Shown: positions 45,554 to 58,083 of the stretch, one piece after another
Numbering within the stretch: the stretch's first letter is position 1
Layout of the letters: every line of letters starts with the position of its first letter
Assembly (NCBI GenBank): GCA_035505095.1
Contig: DATJRE010000239.1
Coordinates: 14,448-78,447 of the forward strand
Source: Bryobacteraceae bacterium
GTDB taxonomy: Bacteria > Acidobacteriota > Terriglobia > Bryobacterales > Bryobacteraceae
Length of the DNA stretch: 64,000 nt
Reading direction: 5' to 3'
Notes under the pieces: model-generated
Database searches by the model: none
Told to the model about the DNA's origin: nothing
The model's input: the letters and a program-made list of their open reading frames with translations, nothing else
Made by a program: the position numbers and the translations under genes

Positions 45554-46183
45554 ATGCGGTCTGTCCCTCGCGCCAGGCGCCGGCTGGGCTTTTTCGGCGG
45601 CTTGGCCGTGCTGTTCCTGTGCGCGGTGGGTCTCTTCGCCATTCTGCAGCCATGGTCCTTCCACATCGGCGGCCGATGGACGCCCACCACCACCTGGTAT
45701 GGAGTGGGCCGGCTGCGCGACTCCACCGGCGCTCAGTATGGCTTGTACCTCTCCTTCTTTCCCGATAACACCTCGGACGGTGAAGGCGGGCTGCGCAGCG
45801 GACCCATGTTGCGCCACGACCTGCGTGGGAAGGCTACGGTTTGCACTGCCGGCGGCGCGCAGTACCGTTTCGACGTCCAGGGCGAGATTACAGGGGCCTG
45901 GCTGCGCACCGATGGCGCAGCAATGTTCCTCTCGCTGGGCGAGCCCCGCGGCCCCAAAATCCCGCGCTCTTTCAGCCTGTACGGTGCCTGGCATGGCCCG
46001 GAGCTGCCGCTCGACGATCACAAGACCATGTTCATGAACTTCCTTCCCGACGGCACTCTCACCCCATCCGGCCACTACACTGCCCCGGTCCCGGAAAAGC
46101 ACGCTACCGTCACGCTCTCCTGGGGTTCCGAAAGCGACTTCGAGACGTTATGCGCGGACCTGCGCAGTGTCCCCGGCCGATGA
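45554..46183 (+). CDS. hypothetical membrane-anchored protein
   Basis: 209-aa ORF with an N-terminal TM (LGFFGGLAVLFLCAVGLFAIL) followed by a beta-rich soluble region. No family recognised. Confidence 0.5.
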   Translation: MRSVPRARRRLGFFGGLAVLFLCAVGLFAILQPWSFHIGGRWTPTTTWYGVGRLRDSTGAQYGLYLSFFPDNTSDGEGGLRSGPMLRHDLRGKATVCTAGGAQYRFDVQGEITGAWLRTDGAAMFLSLGEPRGPKIPRSFSLYGAWHGPELPLDDHKTMFMNFLPDGTLTPSGHYTAPVPEKHATVTLSWGSESDFETLCADLRSVPGR

Positions 46184-46391
46184 GCGCCGCTTACAGGTTT
46201 GGCCCCTTCTTGGAATTGCATCTCCAGCCTGCAAGCGCCGCATCGTCGAGGCTGTGGCCCCGGCCGTGCCGGCGGGCGACGATATGCCCGAGATGGAACG
46301 CCCGCTCCCGGTGATTGCCGCGTTGCTAAGATTAGATTTCACGCCGAAGCCGTCCAGTTCCGGCGCGTGCAAACGCTCGAGGTCCAGCACG

Positions 46392-46661
46392 ATGTGCCGA
46401 AGCATCAAGCCGCTTTTTAATTTCGATCCGCCCGTCAGTCCGGAGGAAATCCGCGCGGCGTCGCTCCAGTTCGTCAGAAAGATCAGCGGCTTCCACAAGC
46501 CGTCCAAGGCCAACGAAGTCTCGTTCGCTGCCGCGGTGGACGAAATTGCCGCTGTGTCCAACCGCCTCCTTCGCTCGCTCGAAACCGCCGCGCCGCCCAA
46601 GAATCGCGAAGAAGAGGCCGCCAAGGCCAAGAGTCGCGCTGCCGATCGATATCGCGCTTGA
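46392..46661 (+). CDS. DUF2277 domain-containing protein
   Basis: 89 aa from MCRSIKPLFNFDPPVSPEEIRAASLQFVRKISGF. This matches my memory of the DUF2277 N-terminus. The upstream part of ORF 46167.. looks non-coding. Confidence 0.6.
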   Translation: MCRSIKPLFNFDPPVSPEEIRAASLQFVRKISGFHKPSKANEVSFAAAVDEIAAVSNRLLRSLETAAPPKNREEEAAKAKSRAADRYRA

Positions 46662-46682
46662 GCCGCGCGCGGCGCCGCAGGA

Positions 46683-48008
46683 TCACCGCCCCCACGGAAT
46701 GGTTTCGAAAATGTTCCGCAGGCGCCGGGCCTTGGCGGGATTAATCATCTCCACGAAGCCGATCCGGCCCGTCAGGTGCGCTCGAAAATCCGCAAGTCCT
46801 TCGCGGTTCTGCGAGGCGGGGCCGCGCCGTGCGCAGTTGATCAGCACCGCTTCCAGCAGTTCGAGGTCGCCGCGGCGAAGGTTGAGCTTTCGGTTCACCA
46901 CCATCCCCGCGAGACTCTGCCGCACGCCTTGCCGCATCATGCGGGTCTTGTGGTGGTTGACGCTGAAACCCTCCTCCAGGGCAACCGCTGCCGCATGGGA
47001 GGCGAAGCGGCCGGCCACCCGGCGGAACTCTGCATCCCCCGAGAAAGCCAGATCGTCGGCGTAGCGCGTGTACACTGCGCCGGCCGACCGGGCCAGGCCG
47101 GAGAGGCGGCAATCCAGGCGGTACGCCGTGATGCTGGCGAGCGCCGGCGAGGTGGGCGCGCCTTGCGGCAGGTGCCGCCGCGCGTACACCGTGTGCGCCT
47201 CCCGCCATTCCGCGGCGCCGATTTCGAGCGGGCGATGGCCCCACGCGTCGCCCGGAACCGCGTTGGTGCAGAGGCCGCCCAGGCCGTCCGCAACCGCCTC
47301 CGGATAACCCAGCGTCCGGAAGAAGGCTTGCACCCGCGCGGCGGGAAATGCGGGGAAGAAGTCCTGCAAGTCGAGGCGCAACACAACCTGCCGGCCGGCA
47401 TGCGGCGCGGCAAAACTGGCCACCGATCGCCCTCTGACGAATCCGTGGGCCGCCGGGTGGGGCGGAATGCGGTCGAGAATCTCGCGTAAGATCCACCGCT
47501 GCAATTCCTTGATTTGCGGCTTGGGGATCTCGATCAGGCGCACGCCGCCCGAGCGCTTGGCGCGTATCCGGTAACGGTAGTGGCGGAGCTTCGGATTATC
47601 GAGCTTGCAGCCGAGACCTTTCAGATCGGCAAACCACTCCAGTTCATCCGGCTGCAGGGACAGCCATCGGGCCAGGTCGCCCACCGTTTCGATCGCGGGA
47701 AGATCCCAGTGCGCGGCGGCGGCCACCGGGCGCATGCGCTGCGGCTCGGGGAGCCAGACGGCCACCGAGAGCTTATCGCGATGGGCGGCGCGCTGAAAAC
47801 CCGCGTCCCCCAGCAGGAATCGGATCACGTCGCGGTGGCGCGGACGGGTGCGCCCGGCGAATGCCTCCACGTAGCGTTGGGCCAAGGGCCGCAGCCAGCG
47901 CCAGGGCCGGCCCAGCGTACGCATGGCCCGTACGTGGACACTCTCGACCGTCGGCTCCCCGGCCATCAGGCTTCGGGCCAGGGCGCTGATCACGGCCGCG
48001 GCGGGCAT
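46683..48008 (-). CDS. retron-type (retron-like) reverse transcriptase with ~130-aa N-terminal extension
   Basis: RT motifs in order: RLIEIPKPQIKELQRWIL, AHGFVRGRSV, LRLDLQDFFPAF, LPQGAPTSPALAS, YTRYADDLAFSG, FSVNHHKTRMM, LAGMVVNRKLNL. A retron-like tail HLTGRIGFVEMINPAKARRL follows. Confidence 0.85.
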   Translation of the reverse strand: MPAAAVISALARSLMAGEPTVESVHVRAMRTLGRPWRWLRPLAQRYVEAFAGRTRPRHRDVIRFLLGDAGFQRAAHRDKLSVAVWLPEPQRMRPVAAAAHWDLPAIETVGDLARWLSLQPDELEWFADLKGLGCKLDNPKLRHYRYRIRAKRSGGVRLIEIPKPQIKELQRWILREILDRIPPHPAAHGFVRGRSVASFAAPHAGRQVVLRLDLQDFFPAFPAARVQAFFRTLGYPEAVADGLGGLCTNAVPGDAWGHRPLEIGAAEWREAHTVYARRHLPQGAPTSPALASITAYRLDCRLSGLARSAGAVYTRYADDLAFSGDAEFRRVAGRFASHAAAVALEEGFSVNHHKTRMMRQGVRQSLAGMVVNRKLNLRRGDLELLEAVLINCARRGPASQNREGLADFRAHLTGRIGFVEMINPAKARRLRNIFETIPWGR

Positions 48009-48013
48009 ACCAG

Positions 48014-48190
48014 ATGGCGGCGGAAGACTTCAACCAGTCTGACTTGGCGTGAGCGGAACTGCCTGCTCGCCATCGCAGAGAGGCTCACGCGACGAAATGG
48101 CGAGGGGACACTCTCCCCCGGGGTAGCCCCGGAGAGGCCAACCGAGCCCGCAAGCCCGATTGCACCGTGCTTGAAAACCTCCACCGCCAC
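48014..48190 (-). ncRNA. candidate RT-associated structured ncRNA (msr/msd-like), bounded by a 13-bp a1/a2-like pairing
   Basis: On the minus strand, GUGGCGGUGGAGG (48190-48178) can pair with CUUCCGCCGCCAU (48026-48014): 10 WC plus 3 GU pairs. Two perfect 8-bp stems and two short hairpins lie between, and a third 8-bp stem spans the a1 arm. TATCAT sits 5 nt upstream. Boundaries are hypothetical. Confidence 0.3.
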
Positions 48191-48233
48191 AGCACATGAT
48201 AGCAACCTGGCGAACCGGCGCGAGGGCTCGGAC

Positions 48234-49487
48234 TTACTGCTCGATCCCCAGCGATGCCGCCACGCGCACCAGCGTCGAAACCAGCCGCTGTACGTGTTTC
48301 TCGGTGTGGGCGGCGGTGCAGGAAATCCGCAGCAGGTTCTGCGCGGCGGCCGGCCGCAGCACCGGGTTGATGTAGATGCCTTCTTCCAGTAGCGCCTTGC
48401 ACAGCCGGCACAAATCAATCTCTTCCTCAATCACCACCGGCACGATGGCGGTTTCGCCGGGCAGCACCTGGAAGCCGCGGGCGCGCAGTTCCTCGCGCAG
48501 ATAGCGCGCCACCTTCAGCAGGCGCAGGCGGCGCTCCGGTTCGTCGCGCATAATTTCCAGCGCTGCGGCCACCGCCGCTACCGAGGCCGCCGGCAGGCTG
48601 GCGGAGAAGACAAACGGCCGGGCGGTGTGCTTCAGGTAATCCACCACCGCGCGGTCCGCGGCGATGAAACCGCCCACCGAAGCCAGCGACTTACTGAACG
48701 TGCCCATGACGATATCCACATCGTCCAGCACGCCCAGGTGCTCGGCGGCGCCGGCGCCGGTTGGTCCCAGGACGCCGATGCCGTGGGCTTCATCCACGTA
48801 CACCCGCGCGCCGTACGGCTTGGCCAGCTTGAGAATGCCGGGCAGGTCGGCGATGTCGCCTTCCATGCTGAAAACCCCTTCGGAGACGATCAGGATTTTG
48901 TCGTCGGGCGGCGTGTTCTCCAGGCAACGCTCAAAGTGCTCCAGGTCATTGTGGCGGAAACGCATGGTGCGGGCCGGCGAGCGCAGGGCGCCCTCCACCA
49001 GGCTGGCGTGCAGGTTGTGATCGCAGATCATCACGTCGCCCTTCTCGGTAAGCGCCGACAGGGTGGCGTAATTGGCTTGAAACCCGGTACCAAAAATAAT
49101 GGCGGCCTCTTTGTGTACGAAGGCCGCCAGTTCGCTTTCCAGCTTGACGTGAATATCGAGGGTGCCGTTCAATAGCCGGGAACCGCTGCACCCGCTGCCG
49201 TACCTCTTTACCGCGTGGGCGGCGGCTTCCTTCACCTTGGGATGCGTAATCAGGTCCAGGTAATCGTTGGACCCGAACATCAATACCTTGCGTTTCCCCA
49301 TGCGGACTTCGCCCGGCCCGCAGCCATCGCGATCGCCAAAGACTTCAAAGTACATATACAACCCGGCGGATTGCAGATCACTCGGACGAGTGAAGTTGCG
49401 GCATTTCTCGAAAATGTCGTTGGTTCCGCGGGCCTTTCCTTTGCCGGTGATGTCGCCAGTCGATACGCGCATGGTCCTCAGTTCCAT
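48234..49487 (-). CDS. alpha-oxoamine synthase family PLP enzyme, serine palmitoyltransferase-like
   Basis: FGSNDYLDL...YGSGCSGSRLLNGT...DEAHGIGVLG...VMGTFSKSLASVGGF (PLP lysine). The overall layout resembles bacterial Spt rather than short BioF. Start 49487 or 49472. Confidence 0.85.
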   Translation of the reverse strand: MELRTMRVSTGDITGKGKARGTNDIFEKCRNFTRPSDLQSAGLYMYFEVFGDRDGCGPGEVRMGKRKVLMFGSNDYLDLITHPKVKEAAAHAVKRYGSGCSGSRLLNGTLDIHVKLESELAAFVHKEAAIIFGTGFQANYATLSALTEKGDVMICDHNLHASLVEGALRSPARTMRFRHNDLEHFERCLENTPPDDKILIVSEGVFSMEGDIADLPGILKLAKPYGARVYVDEAHGIGVLGPTGAGAAEHLGVLDDVDIVMGTFSKSLASVGGFIAADRAVVDYLKHTARPFVFSASLPAASVAAVAAALEIMRDEPERRLRLLKVARYLREELRARGFQVLPGETAIVPVVIEEEIDLCRLCKALLEEGIYINPVLRPAAAQNLLRISCTAAHTEKHVQRLVSTLVRVAASLGIEQ

Positions 49488-50593
49488 TCGTAGATTCGGT
49501 AGGTCTTGTAGCGCTTGGCCCCCATCAGTTCCAGGGAGCGGTTCATCAGGGTATTGTCTTCCAGTATCCAGGACATCTCAGTTTCGCCGTAGCCCAACTG
49601 TCGCGCGTTGCGGACCAGGGTTGCGTAAAAAGCTGCCGCTACGCCGGAAGTGCGGTACTCCTCCACCACGCCCAATGCGAGAACTCGTACACTTCGGATC
49701 AAACGTTGATAATACAGGATTTTGAGCAAACCGGTGGGAAGTAATTTGCCGCCCGCGGGTTTCAGCGCCTGGTTGATGTCGGGCAGGGCCAGCGCGAAAC
49801 CCACTACTTTGCCCTTTACCTCGCCAATCAGTACCAGGCTGGGCTTTAGAATCTGCTTCATCTCCTTGCCCTGCAAGACGAACTCTTCGCGCGACATGGG
49901 GATGAAGCCCCAGTTGCTCACCCATGCCTTGTTGTATACCTCCCAGACTTTCTCTACCTCGGCGTCGAAATTCTTCATATCGATGGGGCGGACCACCACC
50001 CCGTTTTTGGCCAGCGCGCGGCTCGAAACGCGCTCGATTTTGTCGATGTCGATGGTGTTGGCGTTGCTCACGTACGCCAGCAGGTCTTTGGCTTTCTGCA
50101 GCCCCGCCTGCTCCATCAGGGCGGGGTAGTAGCGGTGATTGTAGGTCATCATCACCATGGGGCTGGAATCGAAGGCATCCACCAGCATGCCGCACTCGTA
50201 ATTGGTGGAAGGATTCACGGGGCCGCGCAGGAAACGCGCGCCGCGTCCCGTTACCCACTGCCGCGCGGCGCTAAGCAGCGCCTTGGCCACCGCCGCGTCG
50301 TTGATGCTTTCGTAAAAGCCGAAGAATCCCGCCACTTCTCCGTGGGTCCGGTTGTGGGCTTTGTCGAAAATCGCAGCAATGCGCCCCACCACCCGGCCGT
50401 TCTGCCGCGCCAGGAACAGCTCCGTTTCGGCGTCCTTGTAGTACGGGTGTTTGGCCTTGTCGAGCAACTCCTTCACAGCGATCCGCAACGGCGGCACCCA
50501 ATAGGGATCGCCGCGGTAAATTTCGTAGGGCAGTTCCACGAACTGATGAAGGGCCTTTTTGTCCTCAACCGCAGCGATCTCAATTCCCGCCAA
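49478..50593 (-). CDS. GNAT-fold N-acyltransferase-like protein (candidate bacterial ceramide synthase)
   Basis: 371 aa with a TTG start. Two acyl-CoA N-acyltransferase-like halves (ELFLARQNGRVVGRIAAIFD... and LIGEVKGKVVGFALALPD...LALGVVEEYRTSGVAAAFY). The function is inferred from context. Confidence 0.55.
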   Translation of the reverse strand: MAGIEIAAVEDKKALHQFVELPYEIYRGDPYWVPPLRIAVKELLDKAKHPYYKDAETELFLARQNGRVVGRIAAIFDKAHNRTHGEVAGFFGFYESINDAAVAKALLSAARQWVTGRGARFLRGPVNPSTNYECGMLVDAFDSSPMVMMTYNHRYYPALMEQAGLQKAKDLLAYVSNANTIDIDKIERVSSRALAKNGVVVRPIDMKNFDAEVEKVWEVYNKAWVSNWGFIPMSREEFVLQGKEMKQILKPSLVLIGEVKGKVVGFALALPDINQALKPAGGKLLPTGLLKILYYQRLIRSVRVLALGVVEEYRTSGVAAAFYATLVRNARQLGYGETEMSWILEDNTLMNRSLELMGAKRYKTYRIYEWN

Positions 50594-51458
50594 TCGTCAC
50601 ACTCCCATTGGAAAGTCTCCGGTACAAGACGGGGGCAAACCGGATCAGCAGAAACGCCAACACTGCTCCCGCCAGCAAGTCGACCGTATAGTGGTATCGA
50701 AGATAAACTGTAGCAAAAATGATGCAAAGAGTGTAGGCAAAATAAGCCCGGAATAGCCGATTTGAGACCATCCGGCTGCCCCACCACGCCAGGATGGTGA
50801 GCTCCGTGTGGCCGCTCGGGAAACAGTCGTAATGCGCGGATTCCAAACGGTCCAGCGTGCCCTGCATCCAGTGGAACAGCCAAAGTCCTTCTAACGGCGC
50901 ATGTTGCAAATGGCGCAGCAGAAAACGCGGGCCCCGCGCCGGCACCACGAGGTACCCGCCATAGGAGGTCAGAAAGCCCAGGGCGATTAGAAATGCAAGA
51001 TATTGGAACTCCCCGTAGCGGCCTCTTTTCCAGATCAGGAACGGAATCAGTAGTACCGCCGGTACAAATAAGGTGTAGACAACCTGCAAAAATTCAGTTA
51101 AGGCTGGAGTCTGCACCCGCTCCAGCCAGACAGTCGGATTGGCGTGCCAGAAACGGTAATCCAGGTTCGCCAGCCATTGGTCGAGATCGGTGCGCCGCAC
51201 CGCCGGTACCAGCAGAGCCATTTCCTTGTAACAGGAGGCTACGTAGGGCAGCGGATACCAGTTCCGGAAAACCCAACTGCTACGATTGGGGAATTTCACC
51301 TCACCCACGATCACCGCCAGGGCGGCGGCATGGGCGGCCAGCAGCCAGGGGCCCTCGGCCAGCCGGGACCACCCCAGCAGGATGAGCACCGTGGCGAAGG
51401 CGGTGTAGCCGAAGATCACCTTGTCCACCGCCCAGAAACTGGTCGGCGAGGGTTTCAA
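50580..51458 (-). CDS. PAP2-superfamily membrane protein (PAP2_3 / Aur1-like)
   Basis: Polytopic. C2 motif CFPSGHT and C3 motif RYHYTVDLLAG. I prefer TTG 51458 (TTGA overlap with the upstream stop) over ORF maximum 51587, which would overlap the SDR gene by 133 nt. Confidence 0.7.
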   Translation of the reverse strand: MKPSPTSFWAVDKVIFGYTAFATVLILLGWSRLAEGPWLLAAHAAALAVIVGEVKFPNRSSWVFRNWYPLPYVASCYKEMALLVPAVRRTDLDQWLANLDYRFWHANPTVWLERVQTPALTEFLQVVYTLFVPAVLLIPFLIWKRGRYGEFQYLAFLIALGFLTSYGGYLVVPARGPRFLLRHLQHAPLEGLWLFHWMQGTLDRLESAHYDCFPSGHTELTILAWWGSRMVSNRLFRAYFAYTLCIIFATVYLRYHYTVDLLAGAVLAFLLIRFAPVLYRRLSNGSVTIGGN

Positions 51459-52438
51459 TAGTGGATCCAACCGGCCTCCTTGTACCAGGCCAGGGTGCGG
51501 GCCAAGCCGTCTTCCAGCGGGGTGGCGGCTGCGAAGCCCAGTTCGCGGGCGGCGCGCCGGGGGTCGCAGGTCCAGGCGCGGCAGCACGCCTCGGTGACTT
51601 TATCGCGCGACAAAATGCCCGGCCGGCGTGTCACGCGGGACCACAGTTCGGCGCAGTATGCGGCCACCCGCGCCACGGCCGGCGGGATGCGCAGCACGCG
51701 CACGCGGCGGTTCATAAGCCGCGCGGCCACGGCGGCCAATTCGCTCCAGGACACCACTTTCGGATGGGCCAGAAAATAGGCCCGCCCGGCGGCTTGCGGG
51801 GCCTCTGCTGCGGCGATCAGGCCCTCTGCCAGGTCTTCCACGTAGATAGCGCTGAACCAGCGCTCGCCGCCCGCAATTTCCACCACCAGCCCACCCGAAA
51901 TCGACTTCAGGATCTGGAAAACGTCCGTATCGCGCGGCCCATACACCACCGGCGGCCGTACGATCACCGCATCTGGGCGCCAGCGCGCCGCCATCCGCTC
52001 GGCCTCCAGCTTGGATTTGCCGTATTCCGAAACCGGGTGCGGCGAGGCGTCTTCGGCAATCGGCGCACCGTCCGGGCTGGGACCCATGGCGGCCAGTGAG
52101 CTCACGTGCACAAACCGTATGGGCCGCCCCGCCAGCAAGCGGGCCAGCGTTTCGGTGGCGCGTGTATTGCCGTTGTAATAATCAGCGGCGGCAAGGGCTT
52201 TCGTCACGCCCGCCAGGTGGATCACGGTATCTACCCCATCGAGCGCCGCCTCGATTCCCTGGCCCGTGGTCCAATCCGCCTGCGCCGTCTCCACGCCCGC
52301 CGGAATCGCGTCCTTGCCGTGGGAGCGCGGCTTACCCCGCGCGCGGCGCACCAGGCAGCGTACCCGGATACCCCGCTCGCTCAGTTTCCGCAGCAGATGA
52401 CCGCCGATGAAACCGGTCCCGCCGGTAACCAGGAACAT
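51455..52438 (-). CDS. NAD-dependent epimerase/dehydratase-family (extended SDR) protein
   Basis: MFLVTGGTGFIGGHLLRKL (GxxGxxG) ... VHVSSLAAMG ... YGKSKLEAE (YxxxK). Confidence 0.85.
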   Translation of the reverse strand: MFLVTGGTGFIGGHLLRKLSERGIRVRCLVRRARGKPRSHGKDAIPAGVETAQADWTTGQGIEAALDGVDTVIHLAGVTKALAAADYYNGNTRATETLARLLAGRPIRFVHVSSLAAMGPSPDGAPIAEDASPHPVSEYGKSKLEAERMAARWRPDAVIVRPPVVYGPRDTDVFQILKSISGGLVVEIAGGERWFSAIYVEDLAEGLIAAAEAPQAAGRAYFLAHPKVVSWSELAAVAARLMNRRVRVLRIPPAVARVAAYCAELWSRVTRRPGILSRDKVTEACCRAWTCDPRRAARELGFAAATPLEDGLARTLAWYKEAGWIHY

Positions 52439-53089
52439 TTACTCGGCGGCGCTACGAAAAGCGACTTCGCCGAAGTAGCTTTCCGCGGTGGCCCCGGTGT
52501 GCTGGGAGTTGATCTGGAGGCGCAGCCCCTTCACGTGCGGAGCCGGCTTGCCATAAGCGCGCTGGTAATCGGCCGCCACATTCTGGCTTTCCGAAACCCA
52601 TTGATTCAGCAGCGACGACCCGGATTCGCACACCACCGCGAAGACGTGCACCAGCGGGATGAAGCTGGTGGATTGCGCGGCGCCCTTGGGAGCCGTGGAA
52701 TCCCAGATGTAGCTGACCACCTTGCGGTCGGCGAAAGCCACCAGCACCTGCGCGGCCTGGTCGTCTGTGGAAGCCCGCCGGAAATCGCCTCCCGGTGGAA
52801 TCTGTGCCACCTTCCAACGCCAGGTCAGCACCGGCAACTTGTTGGGGTCCACGTCCACGCTCCGTTCCAGCGAGAAGGACGATTTCACGCTCTTCAGATG
52901 CAAACAACAACCTTCCACGGGCTGGCACACGGAAACGTCGGGTTTTCCGCGGTTCACCTCGATCTTCCAGTCGGTGTTGAACCTTCCAGCGCCCCAGCTG
53001 GCAGTATCCAGAACGATGAGCGCTAAAGGTGAGGTGCGAGCCTGAAAAACGAACACAAGTAGGGTGCCAATGAGCAGTAGCTTCTTCAA
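52439..53089 (-). CDS. DUF3047 domain-containing secreted protein
   Basis: TTG start after GAGG and a signal peptide. LPVLTWRWKVAQIPPGGDFRRASTDDQAAQVLVAF fits DUF3047 as I recall it. The stop abuts the SDR start with a 0-nt gap. Confidence 0.7.
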   Translation of the reverse strand: MKKLLLIGTLLVFVFQARTSPLALIVLDTASWGAGRFNTDWKIEVNRGKPDVSVCQPVEGCCLHLKSVKSSFSLERSVDVDPNKLPVLTWRWKVAQIPPGGDFRRASTDDQAAQVLVAFADRKVVSYIWDSTAPKGAAQSTSFIPLVHVFAVVCESGSSLLNQWVSESQNVAADYQRAYGKPAPHVKGLRLQINSQHTGATAESYFGEVAFRSAAE

Positions 53090-53185: not shown

Positions 53186-54952
53186 CTACCGCACTTTCCC
53201 CTTGACCGTCTCCAGCTCATGCCCGCACTGCGGCAGATCGGGGGCCAGGCGGCAGCCATCTTCCAGGTGTTCGAGCGCCTCCGGTAGCAGTCCCAGGTGC
53301 TCCTCGGCAATTCCTTCTTCGACCAATGCAGTGGAATCGCGCGGCGCCGCCGCCAGCGCCTTCTGAAAATAGGTGCGAGCCTTGGCGTAATTCTCGCGGC
53401 CCATCCACCACGCACCCAGGGCCTCCGCGGCCGGCACGTACTCGGGGTCGAACTGGAGGGCGTTCTGCCATTCGCGCAGCGCGCTCGTGAATTGCCCCGC
53501 GCGCAAACAGGCGTCGGCGAAGTAATATCGCGCCAGCGAGTTGCGCGGGTCGCCCCCGAGCAGCCTCCGGAAGCCGGCCATGGCTTCCGGGTAGCGGCCC
53601 GCATACATGGCCGCCAGGGATTGCTCGAACAGGTTGTACTCCGGCAGTTTGTCCTTGGGGTCCGCCCCCGGCTGGGCCGAAGCCTTGGAAGCCGCCGAGC
53701 CGCCCAGGTAGCCCAGCGATTCCAACATGCGCCGCCGCTCCGCCGAAACCCCGGCCGTGGTGTGCCCGGGGGTGGCTTGGGCCATGATCTCGGCCAGCCG
53801 GCCGCGCAGCTTCGCGGCCATGGCGGCGTCCGCGCCCGCCAGGTTGTGGCGCTCTTCGGGATCGCGCGAAAGATCGTAAAGTTCCGGCTTAGGGGCGTCG
53901 ATATATTGGTAGGCGCCGGCGCGGATGCTCCGCAGGGGCGCCCAATGAAAGGCATCCCGTGGATAGACGCTTTCGCTCACCACCGCCCGCCCGTCGTCCT
54001 TCCTGGATCGCGCCGCGGCCAGCAGGCTGGCGCCCGAGAACTGGGGTGGCGCCGGCAACTTGAGAAAATCCAGGATCGTGGGAGCCACGTCGATGAGGCC
54101 CCCTGGTTGCGCCGCGCGTGGGGGATATCCGGCAGTTCCAGCCGGCCAGTGAACCATCAGCGGGGTCCGCAGCGTGCTTTGATATACGAAGTATCCATGG
54201 CTGGTTTCGCCGTGGTCGCCCAGACTTTCGCCGTGGTCCGAGAGCAGCACCACCAGCGAACGGTCCCACCATCCGCCCGCCACCAGCGCCTGTTGCAATT
54301 GCCCCAGAAGACGGTCCACGTATTCGATTTCGGCATCGTAGCCGGCCGTATTCGGCAGGCCGGAGGTCGAGGCGGCGTGGCTGTAAGGCGCGTGCAGGTC
54401 GAAGAAATGCAGGAACGCGAAGACCGCCTGGCCGTGGTTCTCGCCCAGCCATTGGCGCGCCGCGCGAACCACCAGGGCGCCATCGCGCCGCACTCCCACA
54501 GTCAGCGGATTGTGCGGGCCTTCGGAGGCGATACTGAACGGACTGTCATAAAAATCGAAGCCCTGGTCAAGGCCTAAATGGCGGTCGAGCGGGGCGCTGC
54601 CCACAAAAGCAGCGGTGCGGTAACCGCGGCCGTGCAGCACCCCGGCCAGCGTGACCACCCCCGCGGGCACCCGGCCATCGTTCTCTTCCACGTGGTTGGC
54701 AAACGGCCAGGTGGAGGTGAACAGCGCCGTGTGGGAAGGCAAGGTTAGCGGAATCTGGCTGTCGATGGCGTCGAAAACCGTGCCTCCGCGCGCGAAGGAA
54801 TCGATATTCGGAGTGGCAATCCGCCGGTAACCGTAGATGCCCAGATGGTCGGCGCGCAGGGTGTCAACGGAAATCAGGATGACGGGAGTCTGAGCACTTG
54901 CCGCTGCTGCGGCGAGCCACAGGACTACGCTCCACCGCGCCAGGGTCCACAC
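53186..54952 (-). CDS. sulfatase-like (alkaline-phosphatase superfamily) protein fused to C-terminal TPR repeats
   Basis: GTG start and signal peptide. VILISVDTLRADHLG and LTLPSHTALFTS (no CxPxR, so probably not a formylglycine sulfatase). C-terminal TPRs (ARYYFADACLRAGQFTSALREWQNALQFDP...). Confidence 0.8.
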   Translation of the reverse strand: MWTLARWSVVLWLAAAAASAQTPVILISVDTLRADHLGIYGYRRIATPNIDSFARGGTVFDAIDSQIPLTLPSHTALFTSTWPFANHVEENDGRVPAGVVTLAGVLHGRGYRTAAFVGSAPLDRHLGLDQGFDFYDSPFSIASEGPHNPLTVGVRRDGALVVRAARQWLGENHGQAVFAFLHFFDLHAPYSHAASTSGLPNTAGYDAEIEYVDRLLGQLQQALVAGGWWDRSLVVLLSDHGESLGDHGETSHGYFVYQSTLRTPLMVHWPAGTAGYPPRAAQPGGLIDVAPTILDFLKLPAPPQFSGASLLAAARSRKDDGRAVVSESVYPRDAFHWAPLRSIRAGAYQYIDAPKPELYDLSRDPEERHNLAGADAAMAAKLRGRLAEIMAQATPGHTTAGVSAERRRMLESLGYLGGSAASKASAQPGADPKDKLPEYNLFEQSLAAMYAGRYPEAMAGFRRLLGGDPRNSLARYYFADACLRAGQFTSALREWQNALQFDPEYVPAAEALGAWWMGRENYAKARTYFQKALAAAPRDSTALVEEGIAEEHLGLLPEALEHLEDGCRLAPDLPQCGHELETVKGKVR

Positions 54953-55467: not shown

Positions 55468-57903
55468 TCACTCGTAGCGGAGGGCCACCAGCGGATCGAG
55501 GCGCGCGGCGCGGCGGGCGGGGAGCCATCCGGCCAGCAGGGCCACGGTGGCCAGCAGCAAAGCGACCGCGGCGGCGGTGGCTCCGTCGGTGGGGTGGACT
55601 TCGAACAGGAAAGCGGCCAACACGCGGGTTACCGCCAGCGCGCCCGCCGCACCGGCCGCGAGGCCCAAGGCGATCAGCGCGGCGGCGCGCCGCAGCACCA
55701 TGCGGGTCACGTCTCCGGCGGCGGCGCCCAGCGCCATGCGGATGCCGATTTCGCGCCGCCGCTGCTCCACCGAATACGCCAGCACGGCGTAAATCCCGAA
55801 AGCCGCAAGCGCCAGCGCCAGCAGCGCGAAGGCCGCCAGCAGGCGGGTCTGAAAGAGCGGCTCGGCGGTGGTCTCGGCAACCAGGGACTGCATGGTGGCC
55901 AGCGACTGTGCCGGAATACCGGAGTCGACGTCGCGCAGTGCGCGGCGTAACGCGGGCGCCAGGGCCGCCGGGTTTCCCGGTGTGCGGACCACATACGTCA
56001 TGTGGTCGAGGAAGCCCGCCAGCGTGACCTGCGCGTACGGCTCGTAGATAGCCGGGCTGGCGGCTTGCTTGAGGCCCTGCTGATGGATATCGTCTACCAC
56101 CCCTACAATCGTCAGCCAGTCGCCCGGCCCTGGGCGGTCCTTCATAGACAGCCGCTGGCCGATGGGATCTTCGTTCGGCCACAGCCGCTGGGCCACCTTC
56201 CGGCTGACGATGATCACGCCCGGCGCCGAGGCGTTGTCCGCATCGGTAAATTCCCGCCCCGCGATCAGGCGGATGCCCATGGCGCGGAAGTAGCCGGGGC
56301 TGACGGTCGGTTTGTCTGCCAGGAAACCGCGCGGGCGCCGGCGGCCGTGTTCCATCTGGAAATCGCCTCTGGCCAGGGAATCGCCCAGCGGCCGGAAATT
56401 CACCGCAGCGGCCACGGACACCCCCGGCGCCTGAGCTAGTTCCGCCAGCATCCGTTCATGGAAACCGCGCAGGCTTTGCGCCGTGGGATAAGTGGAGGGC
56501 GGCAGGTCCACCGTCATGGTGAGCAGGTGACCCGAGTGAAAGCCGGGATCCACGGCGCGAATCCGCAGGAAGCTCTTCAGCAGCAATCCGGCGCCGCTCA
56601 GCAGGATCAGGGCCAGCGCCATTTCGGCCACCACCAGCGCGCCGCGCAGCCCTTCGTGGCGGCCGGTCGAGCCGCGGGCCGCTCCCAGGACGCCGCGCTG
56701 TTCCCGGCGTATGGATTGGAGCGCCGGCGCAAGGCCGAAGACGATCCCGGTAGCCAGGGCGACCGCCAAAGTGAAGACCAACGCCGCGGCATCCAGGTGG
56801 ATCTCGCCCAGCCGCGGAATCTTCCCCGCGGGCGCCAGCGCCAGCAGCACCGGCACGGCCCACACCGCCAGCAGCGCCCCCAGCGCGCCGCCGGTAAGCC
56901 AGAGCACCACGCTTTCGGTGAGCAACTGGCGGATCAGCCTCCAGCGGCCGGCGCCGAGCGCCACCCGGATGGCCATCTCCTGCCGGCGGGAAGCGGCGCG
57001 CATCAGCAGCAGGTTGGCGACATTGGCGCAGGCGATCAGAAGCACGAAAGCCACCGCGCCCAGAAACACCAGCAGGGAACTGCGCGATGGCCCGACCACC
57101 ACGTCCTTCAGCGGGATGATGGCCGTTGCGAAGTTTTTGGAATTCTGGGAATCGGCGGCGTACTGATGGTCCATGAGAGTCCGCAACTCGGCCTCCGCTC
57201 GACCCTGCGGAACACCCCCTCTCAGTCGTCCAATCACGCTGAGAGTAAAGGAGTTATGCGAATCGAGCCGGACCGCGCGGGGAGTCCACAGATCGGCGCC
57301 GGGCGGAAAGGCGAAGCCGGGCGGCATAACGCCGGTCACGGTATGGGCCACGCCATCCAGGGTGACCACTTTCCCAAGCACGCTGCGGCTGCCGCCGAAC
57401 TGGCTGCGCCAGAGGTGGTCGCTGAGCAAAACCACGCCGTCGTGGCCAGGAAGGTCGTCGCCTTGCTGGAAGCCGCGGCCGAGGGCTGGAGGCACCCGCA
57501 GCACCGGCAGGAAATCGGTGGTGACCCCGGAGCGCCCCACCCGGACGGGTTCGCTCGCGCCGGCCAGCGCCGCCGGTTGCGCCAGGTCGAAAACGGCCAA
57601 GGGATCGAAAGCTCGCATTTGCCCGCGAATTGCCAGGTAGGCGCTATCGGCGATGCCGATTCCCCCGCCAAGGGCGCGGCGGGGCGGGCCGAACGGGCCG
57701 TCCTTGGGAGTCGAGGTGAGGAAGTAGAGGCGCTCCGGCTGCGGAAAGGGCAGGGGCCGCAGCAGCACGCCGTTGACCACCGTGAAAACGGCAGTATTGG
57801 CGCCGATTCCCAGACCCAGCGCCAAAACGGCGGCAGCGGTGAAGCCGGGGTTGCGAGCCATCATGCGGGCCGCCAGTCGAAGGTCCGGGAGAAAATTGGG
57901 CAT
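55468..57903 (-). CDS. MacB-like duplicated ABC-transporter permease (ADOP-type), second paralog
   Basis: Start MPNFLPDLRLAARMMARNPGFTAAAVLALGLGIGANTAVF. Same two-module architecture as 38973..41618. FtsX loops QEMAIRVALGAGRWRL and RRREIGIRMALGAAAGDV. Confidence 0.85.
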   Translation of the reverse strand: MPNFLPDLRLAARMMARNPGFTAAAVLALGLGIGANTAVFTVVNGVLLRPLPFPQPERLYFLTSTPKDGPFGPPRRALGGGIGIADSAYLAIRGQMRAFDPLAVFDLAQPAALAGASEPVRVGRSGVTTDFLPVLRVPPALGRGFQQGDDLPGHDGVVLLSDHLWRSQFGGSRSVLGKVVTLDGVAHTVTGVMPPGFAFPPGADLWTPRAVRLDSHNSFTLSVIGRLRGGVPQGRAEAELRTLMDHQYAADSQNSKNFATAIIPLKDVVVGPSRSSLLVFLGAVAFVLLIACANVANLLLMRAASRRQEMAIRVALGAGRWRLIRQLLTESVVLWLTGGALGALLAVWAVPVLLALAPAGKIPRLGEIHLDAAALVFTLAVALATGIVFGLAPALQSIRREQRGVLGAARGSTGRHEGLRGALVVAEMALALILLSGAGLLLKSFLRIRAVDPGFHSGHLLTMTVDLPPSTYPTAQSLRGFHERMLAELAQAPGVSVAAAVNFRPLGDSLARGDFQMEHGRRRPRGFLADKPTVSPGYFRAMGIRLIAGREFTDADNASAPGVIIVSRKVAQRLWPNEDPIGQRLSMKDRPGPGDWLTIVGVVDDIHQQGLKQAASPAIYEPYAQVTLAGFLDHMTYVVRTPGNPAALAPALRRALRDVDSGIPAQSLATMQSLVAETTAEPLFQTRLLAAFALLALALAAFGIYAVLAYSVEQRRREIGIRMALGAAAGDVTRMVLRRAAALIALGLAAGAAGALAVTRVLAAFLFEVHPTDGATAAAVALLLATVALLAGWLPARRAARLDPLVALRYE

Positions 57904-58083
57904 GTGCACCTGGGGGTCGTGCGGCACGCCAGCCGCCACTCGGAACGCCTTTGGCATCAGGCGCAAGGGGCCGGCGAGCGAGCCGCGCTGGCCGCCGGTG
58001 GGACCGGCCCTGTCCGAAAGCGGACGCCCGCCGGCCGGAACCCAGCGCGCAAGCTCCTGCTCCGACGGATTACAATCGTGGGT

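Follow-up and report, generated by a model that had tools for sequence, protein, structure and literature searches.

What a retron-type reverse transcriptase (RT) does when no effector gene is encoded beside it is the question raised by a locus in a 64,000-nucleotide stretch of DNA from a Bryobacteraceae bacterium (contig DATJRE010000239.1, positions 14,448 to 78,447). This stretch is referred to here as the window and all coordinates are given within it. An earlier reading made from the letters and the open reading frames (ORFs) of the window, referred to as the sequence-only reading, had described an RT with a non-coding RNA (ncRNA) at the 3' end of a group of lipid-type genes and had recognised no effector. 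Known retrons have been grouped into 13 types that are defined by their effectors (Mestre et al. 2020, PMC7736814). In the current analysis the locus is identified as very probably a stand-alone retron. It probably forms a self-contained, effector-less unit of about 1.5 kb that comprises a -10-like element, an ncRNA of the msr-msd type and an RT with a helical extension.

A reverse transcriptase of the retron lineage

By sequence as well as by fold, the RT belongs to the retron lineage. The Pfam family RVT_1 has been assigned to residues 151-360 (E 6.8e-19). The top 25 matches among the PADLOC models are all retron RT models, with no DRT model among the top matches. The best of them, RT_other (5.5e-145, 482 bits), aligns residues 3-440 with profile positions 68-471 of 481, and is followed by RT_outgroup, which carries the label 'retron' (1.3e-137, 457 bits; profile positions 7-407 of 407 are matched by residues 6-439). 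The third-ranked model, RT_XIII (2.8e-95, 318 bits), covers residues 98-436 only. All 14 sequence matches in the PDB are retron RTs, the best being the RT of Ec86 (8.7e-33). An AF2 model of the RT, made from an alignment of 51 family members that represent 50%-identity clusters, has a pLDDT of 95.3 and a pTM of 0.90. In a Foldseek search with this model the top 18 matches are retron RTs, again led by the Ec86 RT, for which the TM on the target is 0.81-0.83. Far lower scores were obtained for DRT2, group II intron RTs and DRT9. Across the 51 family members there is no variation in the YADD motif, D213, the QGxxxSP motif, H203 (the His of region X) or G368 (the Gly of region Y).

The family is large. 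When 1.84 billion cluster representatives were searched exhaustively with HMMER (E up to 1e-30), 1,747 matches were obtained; the best 150 are mostly about 440 residues in length and align from about residue 5 to residue 440, extension included. The closest relatives that carry a source name (65-95% identity) are labelled as Bryobacteraceae or Solibacter, including Solibacter usitatus Ellin6076, and other members of the family are encoded in Planctomycetaceae and Polyangia. Viral contigs (IMG/VR) gave only distant RT cores, with at most 37% identity and none with the N-terminal extension, and the family is not phage-borne in IMG/VR. Genomic surroundings have been compared in 89 sources, namely the window, 8 genome loci and 80 metagenome loci, with RT identities of 39-95%; in 39 of these sources the RT is flanked by 2 kb or more on either side.

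A covarying RNA directly upstream of the reverse transcriptase

The gap of 225 nt between the RT and the upstream gene, which encodes a serine palmitoyltransferase (Spt)-like enzyme, contains a conserved structured RNA. About 200 nt directly 5' of the RT start are conserved in the relatives and the flanks beyond are unrelated. RNAalifold on a MAFFT alignment gives 35 pairs and shows compensatory changes in 21 of these. A covariance model (R1) built from 36 sequences matches the window at 48004-48218 (- strand) with 167 bits. In 75 of the 89 sources it finds one match directly upstream of the RT and on the RT strand, many of these sources being outside the model-building set, and at least 7 of the 14 sources that it misses are without upstream sequence. 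Matches have also been identified in three Polyangia loci, and none was found in four loci with the lipid operon and without the RT, which served as a negative control for the covariance model.

In a 61-locus alignment to the model, 96.2% of the cells are paired and 29 of the 35 pairs are changed on both sides. None of 500 shuffles reaches these values, and slid controls pair only to 35-47%. This alignment was fitted to the covariance model and favours the structure; the independent MAFFT/RNAalifold result agrees with it. Folding of the single intergenic sequence gives a z-score of only -1.17, and the structure is clear from the comparative data only. A scan of 44-54 kb against Rfam (E up to 1) gave no match, and Rfam lists no ncRNA family of retron clade 11. 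The ncRNA proposed in the sequence-only reading is thus borne out by covariation and by conservation that is linked to the RT.

Retron ncRNAs are recognised by their place beside the RT, an inverted repeat longer than 8 bp, a G for priming close to the 5' end, and hairpins (PMC10849725). The RNA described here has an 18-nt a1/a2 duplex, an invariant G and three internal hairpins, two in the msr and one in the presumed msd (Table 1). The inner 8 pairs of the duplex covary strongly, one of them being represented as UA (18), GC (17) and CG (12). In msr hairpin 2 the pair of columns 128 and 140 occurs as CG (38) and UA (22), and the inner stem of the presumed msd shows covariation in all 5 of its pairs. 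In the CAAGC motif the 36-sequence alignment shows no change at the first C, the first A and the G, and conservation of at least 90% at the second A and the final C. G48170 would be the priming G by the retron rule, which places it near the 5' end and beside the a1/a2 duplex (PMC10849725). A G stands directly 5' of a2, and the msd stem is preceded by a patch rich in A and T, both of which appear to fit the tendencies described for the start and stop of reverse transcription (PMC10849725).

The presumed msd shows a pattern of its own. Its outer stem and the 5' flank TTTCGTC (48047-48097, - strand) are almost invariant in 61 ncRNAs, the RTs of which are only 40-95% identical, unlike the a1/a2 duplex, hairpin 1 and the inner msd stem, which covary freely. 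The near-invariant outer stem hints at a sequence-specific role of the multicopy single-stranded DNA (msDNA) or at a function in RT binding. A pseudoknot between CTCGCCAT/ATGGCGAG and GCGTGAGC/GCTCACGC was considered and rejected, the first pairing not being kept in the relatives. A direct repeat of 27 nt (74% identical, with a GGACACTCTC core) has also been noticed between 47936-47962, that is RT codons 16-24, and 48106-48132, in the 3' flank of hairpin 2; it is probably due to chance.

An extended -10-like element is found 5' of the a1 arm, and the sequence further 5' is unrelated among the 36 aligned loci. A generic sigma-70 scan does not call TGCTATCAT, which is without a -35-like hexamer. 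From its conserved sequence and position the element is likely to be a putative promoter of the module itself, and the module needs such a promoter because in about half of the loci the gene upstream points the other way. The boundaries of conservation are sharp: they start at the -10-like element and end at the RT stop codon. The element proper spans about 46683-48204, and the rest of the span 45554-53089 consists mostly of unrelated neighbours.

The search for an effector beside the reverse transcriptase

The sequence-only reading had claimed that no co-directional gene follows the RT. This is confirmed for the window, where the DUF2277 gene and the gene of a 209-residue protein both lie on the + strand, convergent to the RT. 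The claim also holds across the family. When the ORFs of the 89 loci were clustered all against all, no family other than the RT was present in more than 9 loci. The top neighbour cluster consists of MacB-type permeases at varying distance and on either strand and the second is a spurious ORF over the ncRNA. Since no neighbour recurs across the 89 loci, the effector-less state is a property of the family and not the result of a loss in this genome. The sequence-only reading had considered such a loss, with orthologous RTs elsewhere sitting beside a classical effector; none was found in the 89 loci.

The first neighbours on each side in 87 non-redundant loci amount to 149 proteins. Their orientation is close to random: 45 are convergent and 34 co-directional downstream, and 36 are co-directional and 34 divergent upstream. 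The commonest Pfam families among them (DAO, MacB_PCD, HATPase_c and FtsX) have 3 members each and the remaining ones are ordinary metabolic or transport genes. PADLOC recognises 6 families among the 149 proteins, with at most 2 members each, none of them a retron effector. Judged against the tripartite defence retrons of types I-XIII, the locus has neither an adjacent effector gene nor a fused effector domain.

Eight contexts on long contigs have been annotated with Pfam, which together with the 89 loci cover three phyla. They contain housekeeping genes, are all different and do not resemble defence islands. Examples are PhoH-YbeY-CorC-Era with AraC, FecR with an AP endonuclease, a caspase/TPR gene with an epimerase, a histidine kinase with a pyrophosphatase and TerC, an MFS gene with an ABC transporter, and polysaccharide genes. 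The distance from the RT stop codon to the next gene is about 40 nt in three Bryobacteraceae contexts, 22 nt in the window, where the convergent DUF2277 gene ends, and about 100-170 nt in two Polyangia loci; gaps as short as these can hardly, if at all, accommodate a downstream ORF.

Paralogues of MacB/FtsX-type permeases are found near the RT in 9 of the 89 loci; those of the window lie at 55468-57966 (- strand). Their recurrence is explained most simply by the very high copy number of these genes in Acidobacteria and not by a link to the RT.

The N-terminal extension

An effector might alternatively be fused to the RT, and the sequence-only reading had proposed a single-protein system in which the N-terminal extension is the effector. 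The AF2 model (pLDDT about 90-98) shows residues 1-77 as a five-helix bundle and residues about 78-100 as a linker. Residues about 105-143 are the counterpart of the usual N-terminal helices of retron RTs ahead of RT motif 1. The constant size of the extension across most of the best 150 cluster representatives and a predicted fold of high confidence can be counted in favour of this proposal, as can the occurrence of fused effectors in retrons of types I-C, XI and XII (PMC7736814). The known fused effectors are, however, C-terminal enzymatic domains, and the extension is only a helical bundle of about 77 residues with a linker. It has no invariant column in the family alignment; the nearly invariant columns are A11, R27, L116 and L123, of which R27 is the sole polar one.

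Database searches with the extension point to neither an enzyme nor a pore. Pfam scans of the N-terminal and C-terminal extensions found no domain, and Foldseek comparisons of the N-terminal extension with the PDB and with viral structures (BFVD) gave nothing below E = 0.5. A single-protein system with the extension as effector is not supported by these results and is considered very unlikely, and an enzymatic role of the extension is unlikely as well. A role as an interface for nucleic acids or proteins is plausible.

A profile of the extension gave weak matches among PDB sequences to designed alphaRep proteins, which are HEAT-like (1.5e-5). A HEAT-like identity was not confirmed when the profile was compared with that of a natural HEAT_2 protein (probability 0.2%), and the fold searches were empty. 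The alphaRep match may be compositional and is at best a weak lead.

Comparison with known systems

The RT family is already catalogued as an untyped, effector-less kind of retron, of which the window holds a further member. The PADLOC models RT_other and RT_outgroup, which have no type number, match the RT over its full length, N-terminal extension included. Stand-alone (msr-msd)-RT cassettes have been described for RT clade 11 and for the Ec107-like branch of clade 2 (PMC7736814). A survey of 2026 again reports clades 11-A and 11-B, in Pseudomonadota, Actinomycetota and Acidobacteriota, with no consistent accessory modules or distinguishing features (10.64898/2026.05.14.725207). The window shares with the clade 11 cassettes an RT of the retron lineage, an adjoining ncRNA of the a1/a2 type and the lack of an associated protein, and it shares with clade 11-A the occurrence in Acidobacteriota (10.64898/2026.05.14.725207); these likenesses give indirect support to a possible place in clade 11. 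Clade 11 was first described as mainly actinobacterial and the taxa represented here are Bryobacterales, Polyangia and Planctomycetaceae, which is an indirect ground for doubt. The RT does not belong to the Ec107-like branch (RT_Ec107-like 166.5 bits, against 482 for RT_other). The sequence-only reading had allowed for a known stand-alone class with a described mechanism. The class is indeed known, in that the RT is of a catalogued untyped kind and stand-alone cassettes have been described (PMC7736814), but no mechanism has been described for it, and none for effector-less retrons was found in the literature.

Among the effector-defined types, type XIII (RT clade 10, with the myxobacterial Mx162 and Mx65) scores best with the RT. 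The RT family described here also has relatives in Myxococcota. Type XIII retrons have a SWIM Zn-finger/winged-helix partner and often a HEAT/ARM-like accessory protein that co-evolves with the RT (PMC7736814). A vertically inherited, possibly domesticated character has been suggested for them, and some vertically inherited retrons in general may be domesticated (PMC7736814). The type XIII model lacks the N-terminal bundle of the window RT, as it covers only the residues that follow it. No cluster of SWIM or HEAT/ARM-like partners has been identified at the 89 loci and none is adjacent to the RT in the 8 annotated contexts. A HEAT_2 gene occurs twice, in one case as a second neighbour and in the other about 5.5 kb off, and neither SWIM nor HEAT is among the top neighbour families.

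The closest solved structure is that of Ec86 (Eco1, type II-A), which has in common with the window the RT core, the His of region X, the YADD motif and the order of ncRNA followed by RT. Ec86 has a gene for a nucleoside deoxyribosyltransferase-like effector and the window retron is without one. The window RT differs further by about 100 extra N-terminal residues and by an insertion of about 30 residues (248-277) before QGAPTSP.

DRT2 and DRT9 (UG2 and UG28), in which the complementary DNA (cDNA) is the effector, are similar to the window in having an RT and an ncRNA and no separate effector gene, and the sequence-only reading had listed a system of this kind. They differ in RT lineage: the Drt2 model of NCBIfam gives 29.8 bits against a cut-off of 390 and the Foldseek TM scores are 0.42-0.43. 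The ncRNA of the window has the a1/a2 and priming-G layout of retrons and not the DRT2/DRT9 scaffold. Kinship with these systems therefore does not hold, the RT being neither of the UG/Abi nor of the DRT groups and the RNA having a classical a1/a2 layout; the other part of the proposal stands, in that the cDNA or a ribonucleoprotein (RNP) could still be the output.

Several points weigh against the interpretation of the locus as a stand-alone retron. Regions X (NAxxH) and Y (VTG) are motifs of retron RTs as defined in PMC7736814. They are degenerate here, region X reading FAAPH (NATPH in Ec86) and region Y LAG (VTG in Ec86), so that the Asn, the Val and the Thr are lost. Ahead of G48170 stands CAA in place of the common TTA. 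As a presumed msd the region is short and has a near-invariant outer stem, which is unusual for an msd; it might be an element bound by the RT instead of a template. The msDNA, the promoter activity and the phenotype are putative here. As regards the neighbourhood, the 80 metagenome loci are the best-scoring 80 of 591 and not a random sample. Neighbours were called by a greedy longest-ORF rule in GC-rich DNA, with the consequence that some strands may be wrong, and the analysis is blind to a partner whose gene lies at another place in the genome.

Possible function of the effector-less retron

The steps that would be expected at this locus are derived from the biology of other retrons. One transcript, starting just upstream of a1, would carry both the ncRNA and the RT ORF, and the RT would bind the conserved msr hairpins. 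Priming would take place on the 2'-OH of the invariant G (48170) beside the a1/a2 duplex, and copying of the msd would run from about G48034 as far as the AT-rich patch near 48095. A branched msDNA of roughly 60 nt would result, with the GCGTGAGC/GCTCACGC hairpin as its fold.

Nowhere in the family is a toxin gene linked to the RT, and the particle of RT and msDNA is therefore most likely either the product itself or the associate of a distant partner. A role as the antitoxin half of a classical three-part retron of abortive infection is unlikely. That the RNP or the msDNA alone is the functional output is a tentative proposal, which we hold with some doubt. More speculative, and in our view rather unlikely, is a widespread, chromosomally embedded and domesticated lineage in Acidobacteriota, Myxococcota and Planctomycetota. 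Its functional product would be the short, conserved msDNA hairpin, bound to the RT with its unique N-terminal bundle, and this could serve normal physiology as a decoy, as a sensor or as single-stranded DNA with a regulatory role, and not as the antitoxin of an abortive-infection toxin.

A distant partner would make the locus one part of a split three-part retron, in which RT and msDNA restrain a protein encoded elsewhere until phage infection. All retrons that have been studied mechanistically restrain an effector by means of the RT-msDNA complex (PMC10849725, PMC12548924), and the N-terminal helical bundle could serve as a docking surface. The weak likeness of the extension to designed HEAT-like repeats and the HEAT/ARM-like accessory protein of the nearest type, XIII, can be counted in the same direction. 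Co-evolving defence partners are normally adjacent, however, and no linked partner has been found in the 89 loci and 8 annotated contexts of three phyla. The HEAT lead failed against the natural HEAT_2 protein and in the fold searches, and the contexts are of the housekeeping type. A split retron is accordingly regarded as unlikely.

In each retron of known mechanism a linked toxin is restrained by RT-msDNA. Lineages of effector-less retrons have been catalogued and never explained mechanistically. The family described here offers a practical entry point to their role, with more than 150 clusters (50% identity) that match end to end and thousands of members from soil bacteria, part of which sit in housekeeping contexts and not in defence islands. 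It is also tractable, as the covarying ncRNA is sharply defined, the model of the RT is of high confidence and an orthologue is available in the cultured Solibacter usitatus Ellin6076. Such compact pairs of RT and ncRNA could serve in DNA-writing tools.

Mobility of the module

A further possibility is a selfish or mobile retroelement that has no host function and spreads between chromosomal sites. The compact unit with its sharp boundaries of conservation, found at a different site in almost every lineage, can be counted in favour of such an element. Synteny decays fast around the lipid operon too, so the varying sites of the RT do not prove horizontal transfer or mobility. The surroundings are free of the marks of mobility, as the sequence-only reading had stated. 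No integrase or transposase is present among the genes examined at 43.5-58.0 kb and no tRNA or tmRNA in the whole window. The search for repeats flanking the RT gave only short, GC-rich matches of chance level and neither a target-site duplication nor a terminal repeat. Around the RT the G+C content shows no anomaly. Only one copy of the ncRNA was found per locus on the RT strand, the RT and the base pairs of the ncRNA are under strong constraint, and the viral contigs hold no members of the family. A mobile element without host function is given very little probability.

The neighbouring lipid genes, DUF2277 and the 209-residue protein

Table 1. Features of the retron locus and of its neighbours (positions in the window)
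Feature	Position	Strand	Basis or remark
Extended -10-like element, TGCTATCAT (consensus TGnTATCAT)	48196-48204	-	sits 5' of a1 at constant spacing in nearly all of the 36 aligned loci
Retron-like ncRNA (msr-msd), a1 arm to a2 arm	48016-48188	-	covariance model R1
a1 arm, GGCGGTGGAGGTTTTCAA	48171-48188	-	pairs with a2 at 17 of 18 positions counting G-U
Candidate branching (priming) guanosine in CAAGC, directly 3' of a1	48170	-	position; conservation
Hairpin 1 (msr)	about 48141-48157	-	
Hairpin 2 (msr), highly conserved, YUA/UUAC loop	48115-48135	-	nine pairs, 6 of 9 with compensatory changes
Presumed msd stem-loop, outer stem GCGTGAGC/GCTCACGC, inner stem CTGCG/…GCAG	48047-48090	-	helices 4 and 5 of the covariation analysis
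a2 arm, TTGAAGTCTTCCGCCGCC	48016-48033	-	ends 7 nt ahead of the RT start codon
RT start codon (ATG)	48008	-	
Retron-type RT, 441 residues	46683-48008	-	RVT_1, PADLOC, Ec86-like fold
Family-specific N-terminal extension, residues 1-97	47718-48008	-	length and pattern conserved in 51 representatives of 50%-identity clusters
YADD catalytic motif, Y316-D319	47052-47063	-	read from sequence; columns invariant in family alignment
DUF2277 gene, convergent to RT	46392-46661, inside ORF 46167-46661	+	Pfam DUF2277, E 2.5e-33
209-residue protein, without family match	45554-46183	+	next gene past DUF2277
Spt-like pyridoxal phosphate enzyme	48234-49487	-	NCBIfam serine palmitoyltransferase 4.8e-138, under the curated cut-off
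GNAT-like	49478-50593	-	
PAP2	50580-51587	-	
Short-chain dehydrogenase/reductase (SDR)/epimerase	51455-52438	-	
DUF3047	52439-53089	-	
Sulfatase/TPR gene, upstream of DUF3047	53186-54952	-	

As the sequence-only reading had described, five tightly coupled lipid-type genes, from the Spt-like enzyme to DUF3047, lie upstream of the RT, are co-directional with it and abut or overlap one another. That reading had also considered an RT domesticated in the service of this operon, or DUF2277 or the membrane protein (the 209-residue protein) as an unconventional convergent partner. Adjacency in the window and in one metagenome-assembled genome with a 95% identical RT (L005), the lack of a called terminator-like site between Spt and the ncRNA, and a PAP2-domain gene upstream of the RT in one further locus (L001) speak for such a tie.

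The same five genes have been identified in the same order (DUF3047, epimerase, PAP2, GNAT-like, Spt) on four other Bryobacteraceae contigs (L174-L177), with Spt 88-93% identical. On these contigs the operon ends at Spt and is followed by a different gene in each, namely DUF202/DUF302, Metal_resist, a response regulator with STAS and a peptidase M14. Neither the RT nor the ncRNA is found in any of the four. Among the 8 genome loci only L005 shares any neighbour with the window, and it keeps the lipid operon and DUF2277. At the other RT loci (39-75% identity, and 47-75% in the genome loci) no Spt, GNAT-like, PAP2, DUF3047, DUF2277 or 209-residue protein gene is within reach. As all 4 of the relatives examined have the operon and no RT, and every other locus has the RT and no operon, a link between RT and lipid genes is refuted at the level of the family, and so is a partnership with DUF2277 or the membrane protein, both of which are absent from all loci but L005. 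Strain-specific co-regulation is possible. A functional tie of the RT to any of these genes has a probability close to nil, and they are chance neighbours of the retron. For annotation this means that the neighbouring ceramide-type lipid operon and DUF2277 are not to be read as partners of the retron.

The five genes (48234-53089, - strand) form a strictly conserved operon in Bryobacteraceae, as seen in L174-L177. Bacterial ceramide synthesis involves Spt, an acyltransferase and a reductase. The five-gene operon of the window appears to encode a ceramide or phosphosphingolipid pathway with a PAP2-type head-group transferase, in which DUF3047 would be an uncharacterised fifth component.

In L005 (4515-6879) the Spt-like and GNAT-like proteins of the window are matched in several overlapping or frame-shifted pieces, which may reflect assembly indels or pseudogenisation. 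In L174 (443-1274) the lipid operon is preceded closely upstream by a pair of genes encoding a nucleotidyltransferase (NTP_transf_2) and a HEPN protein, a combination typical of toxin-antitoxin systems. The PAP2 ORF of the window as listed has 335 residues and overlaps the epimerase gene by 133 nt. Its orthologues have 296-299 residues, and the true PAP2 start is therefore probably about 36-39 codons downstream of 51587.

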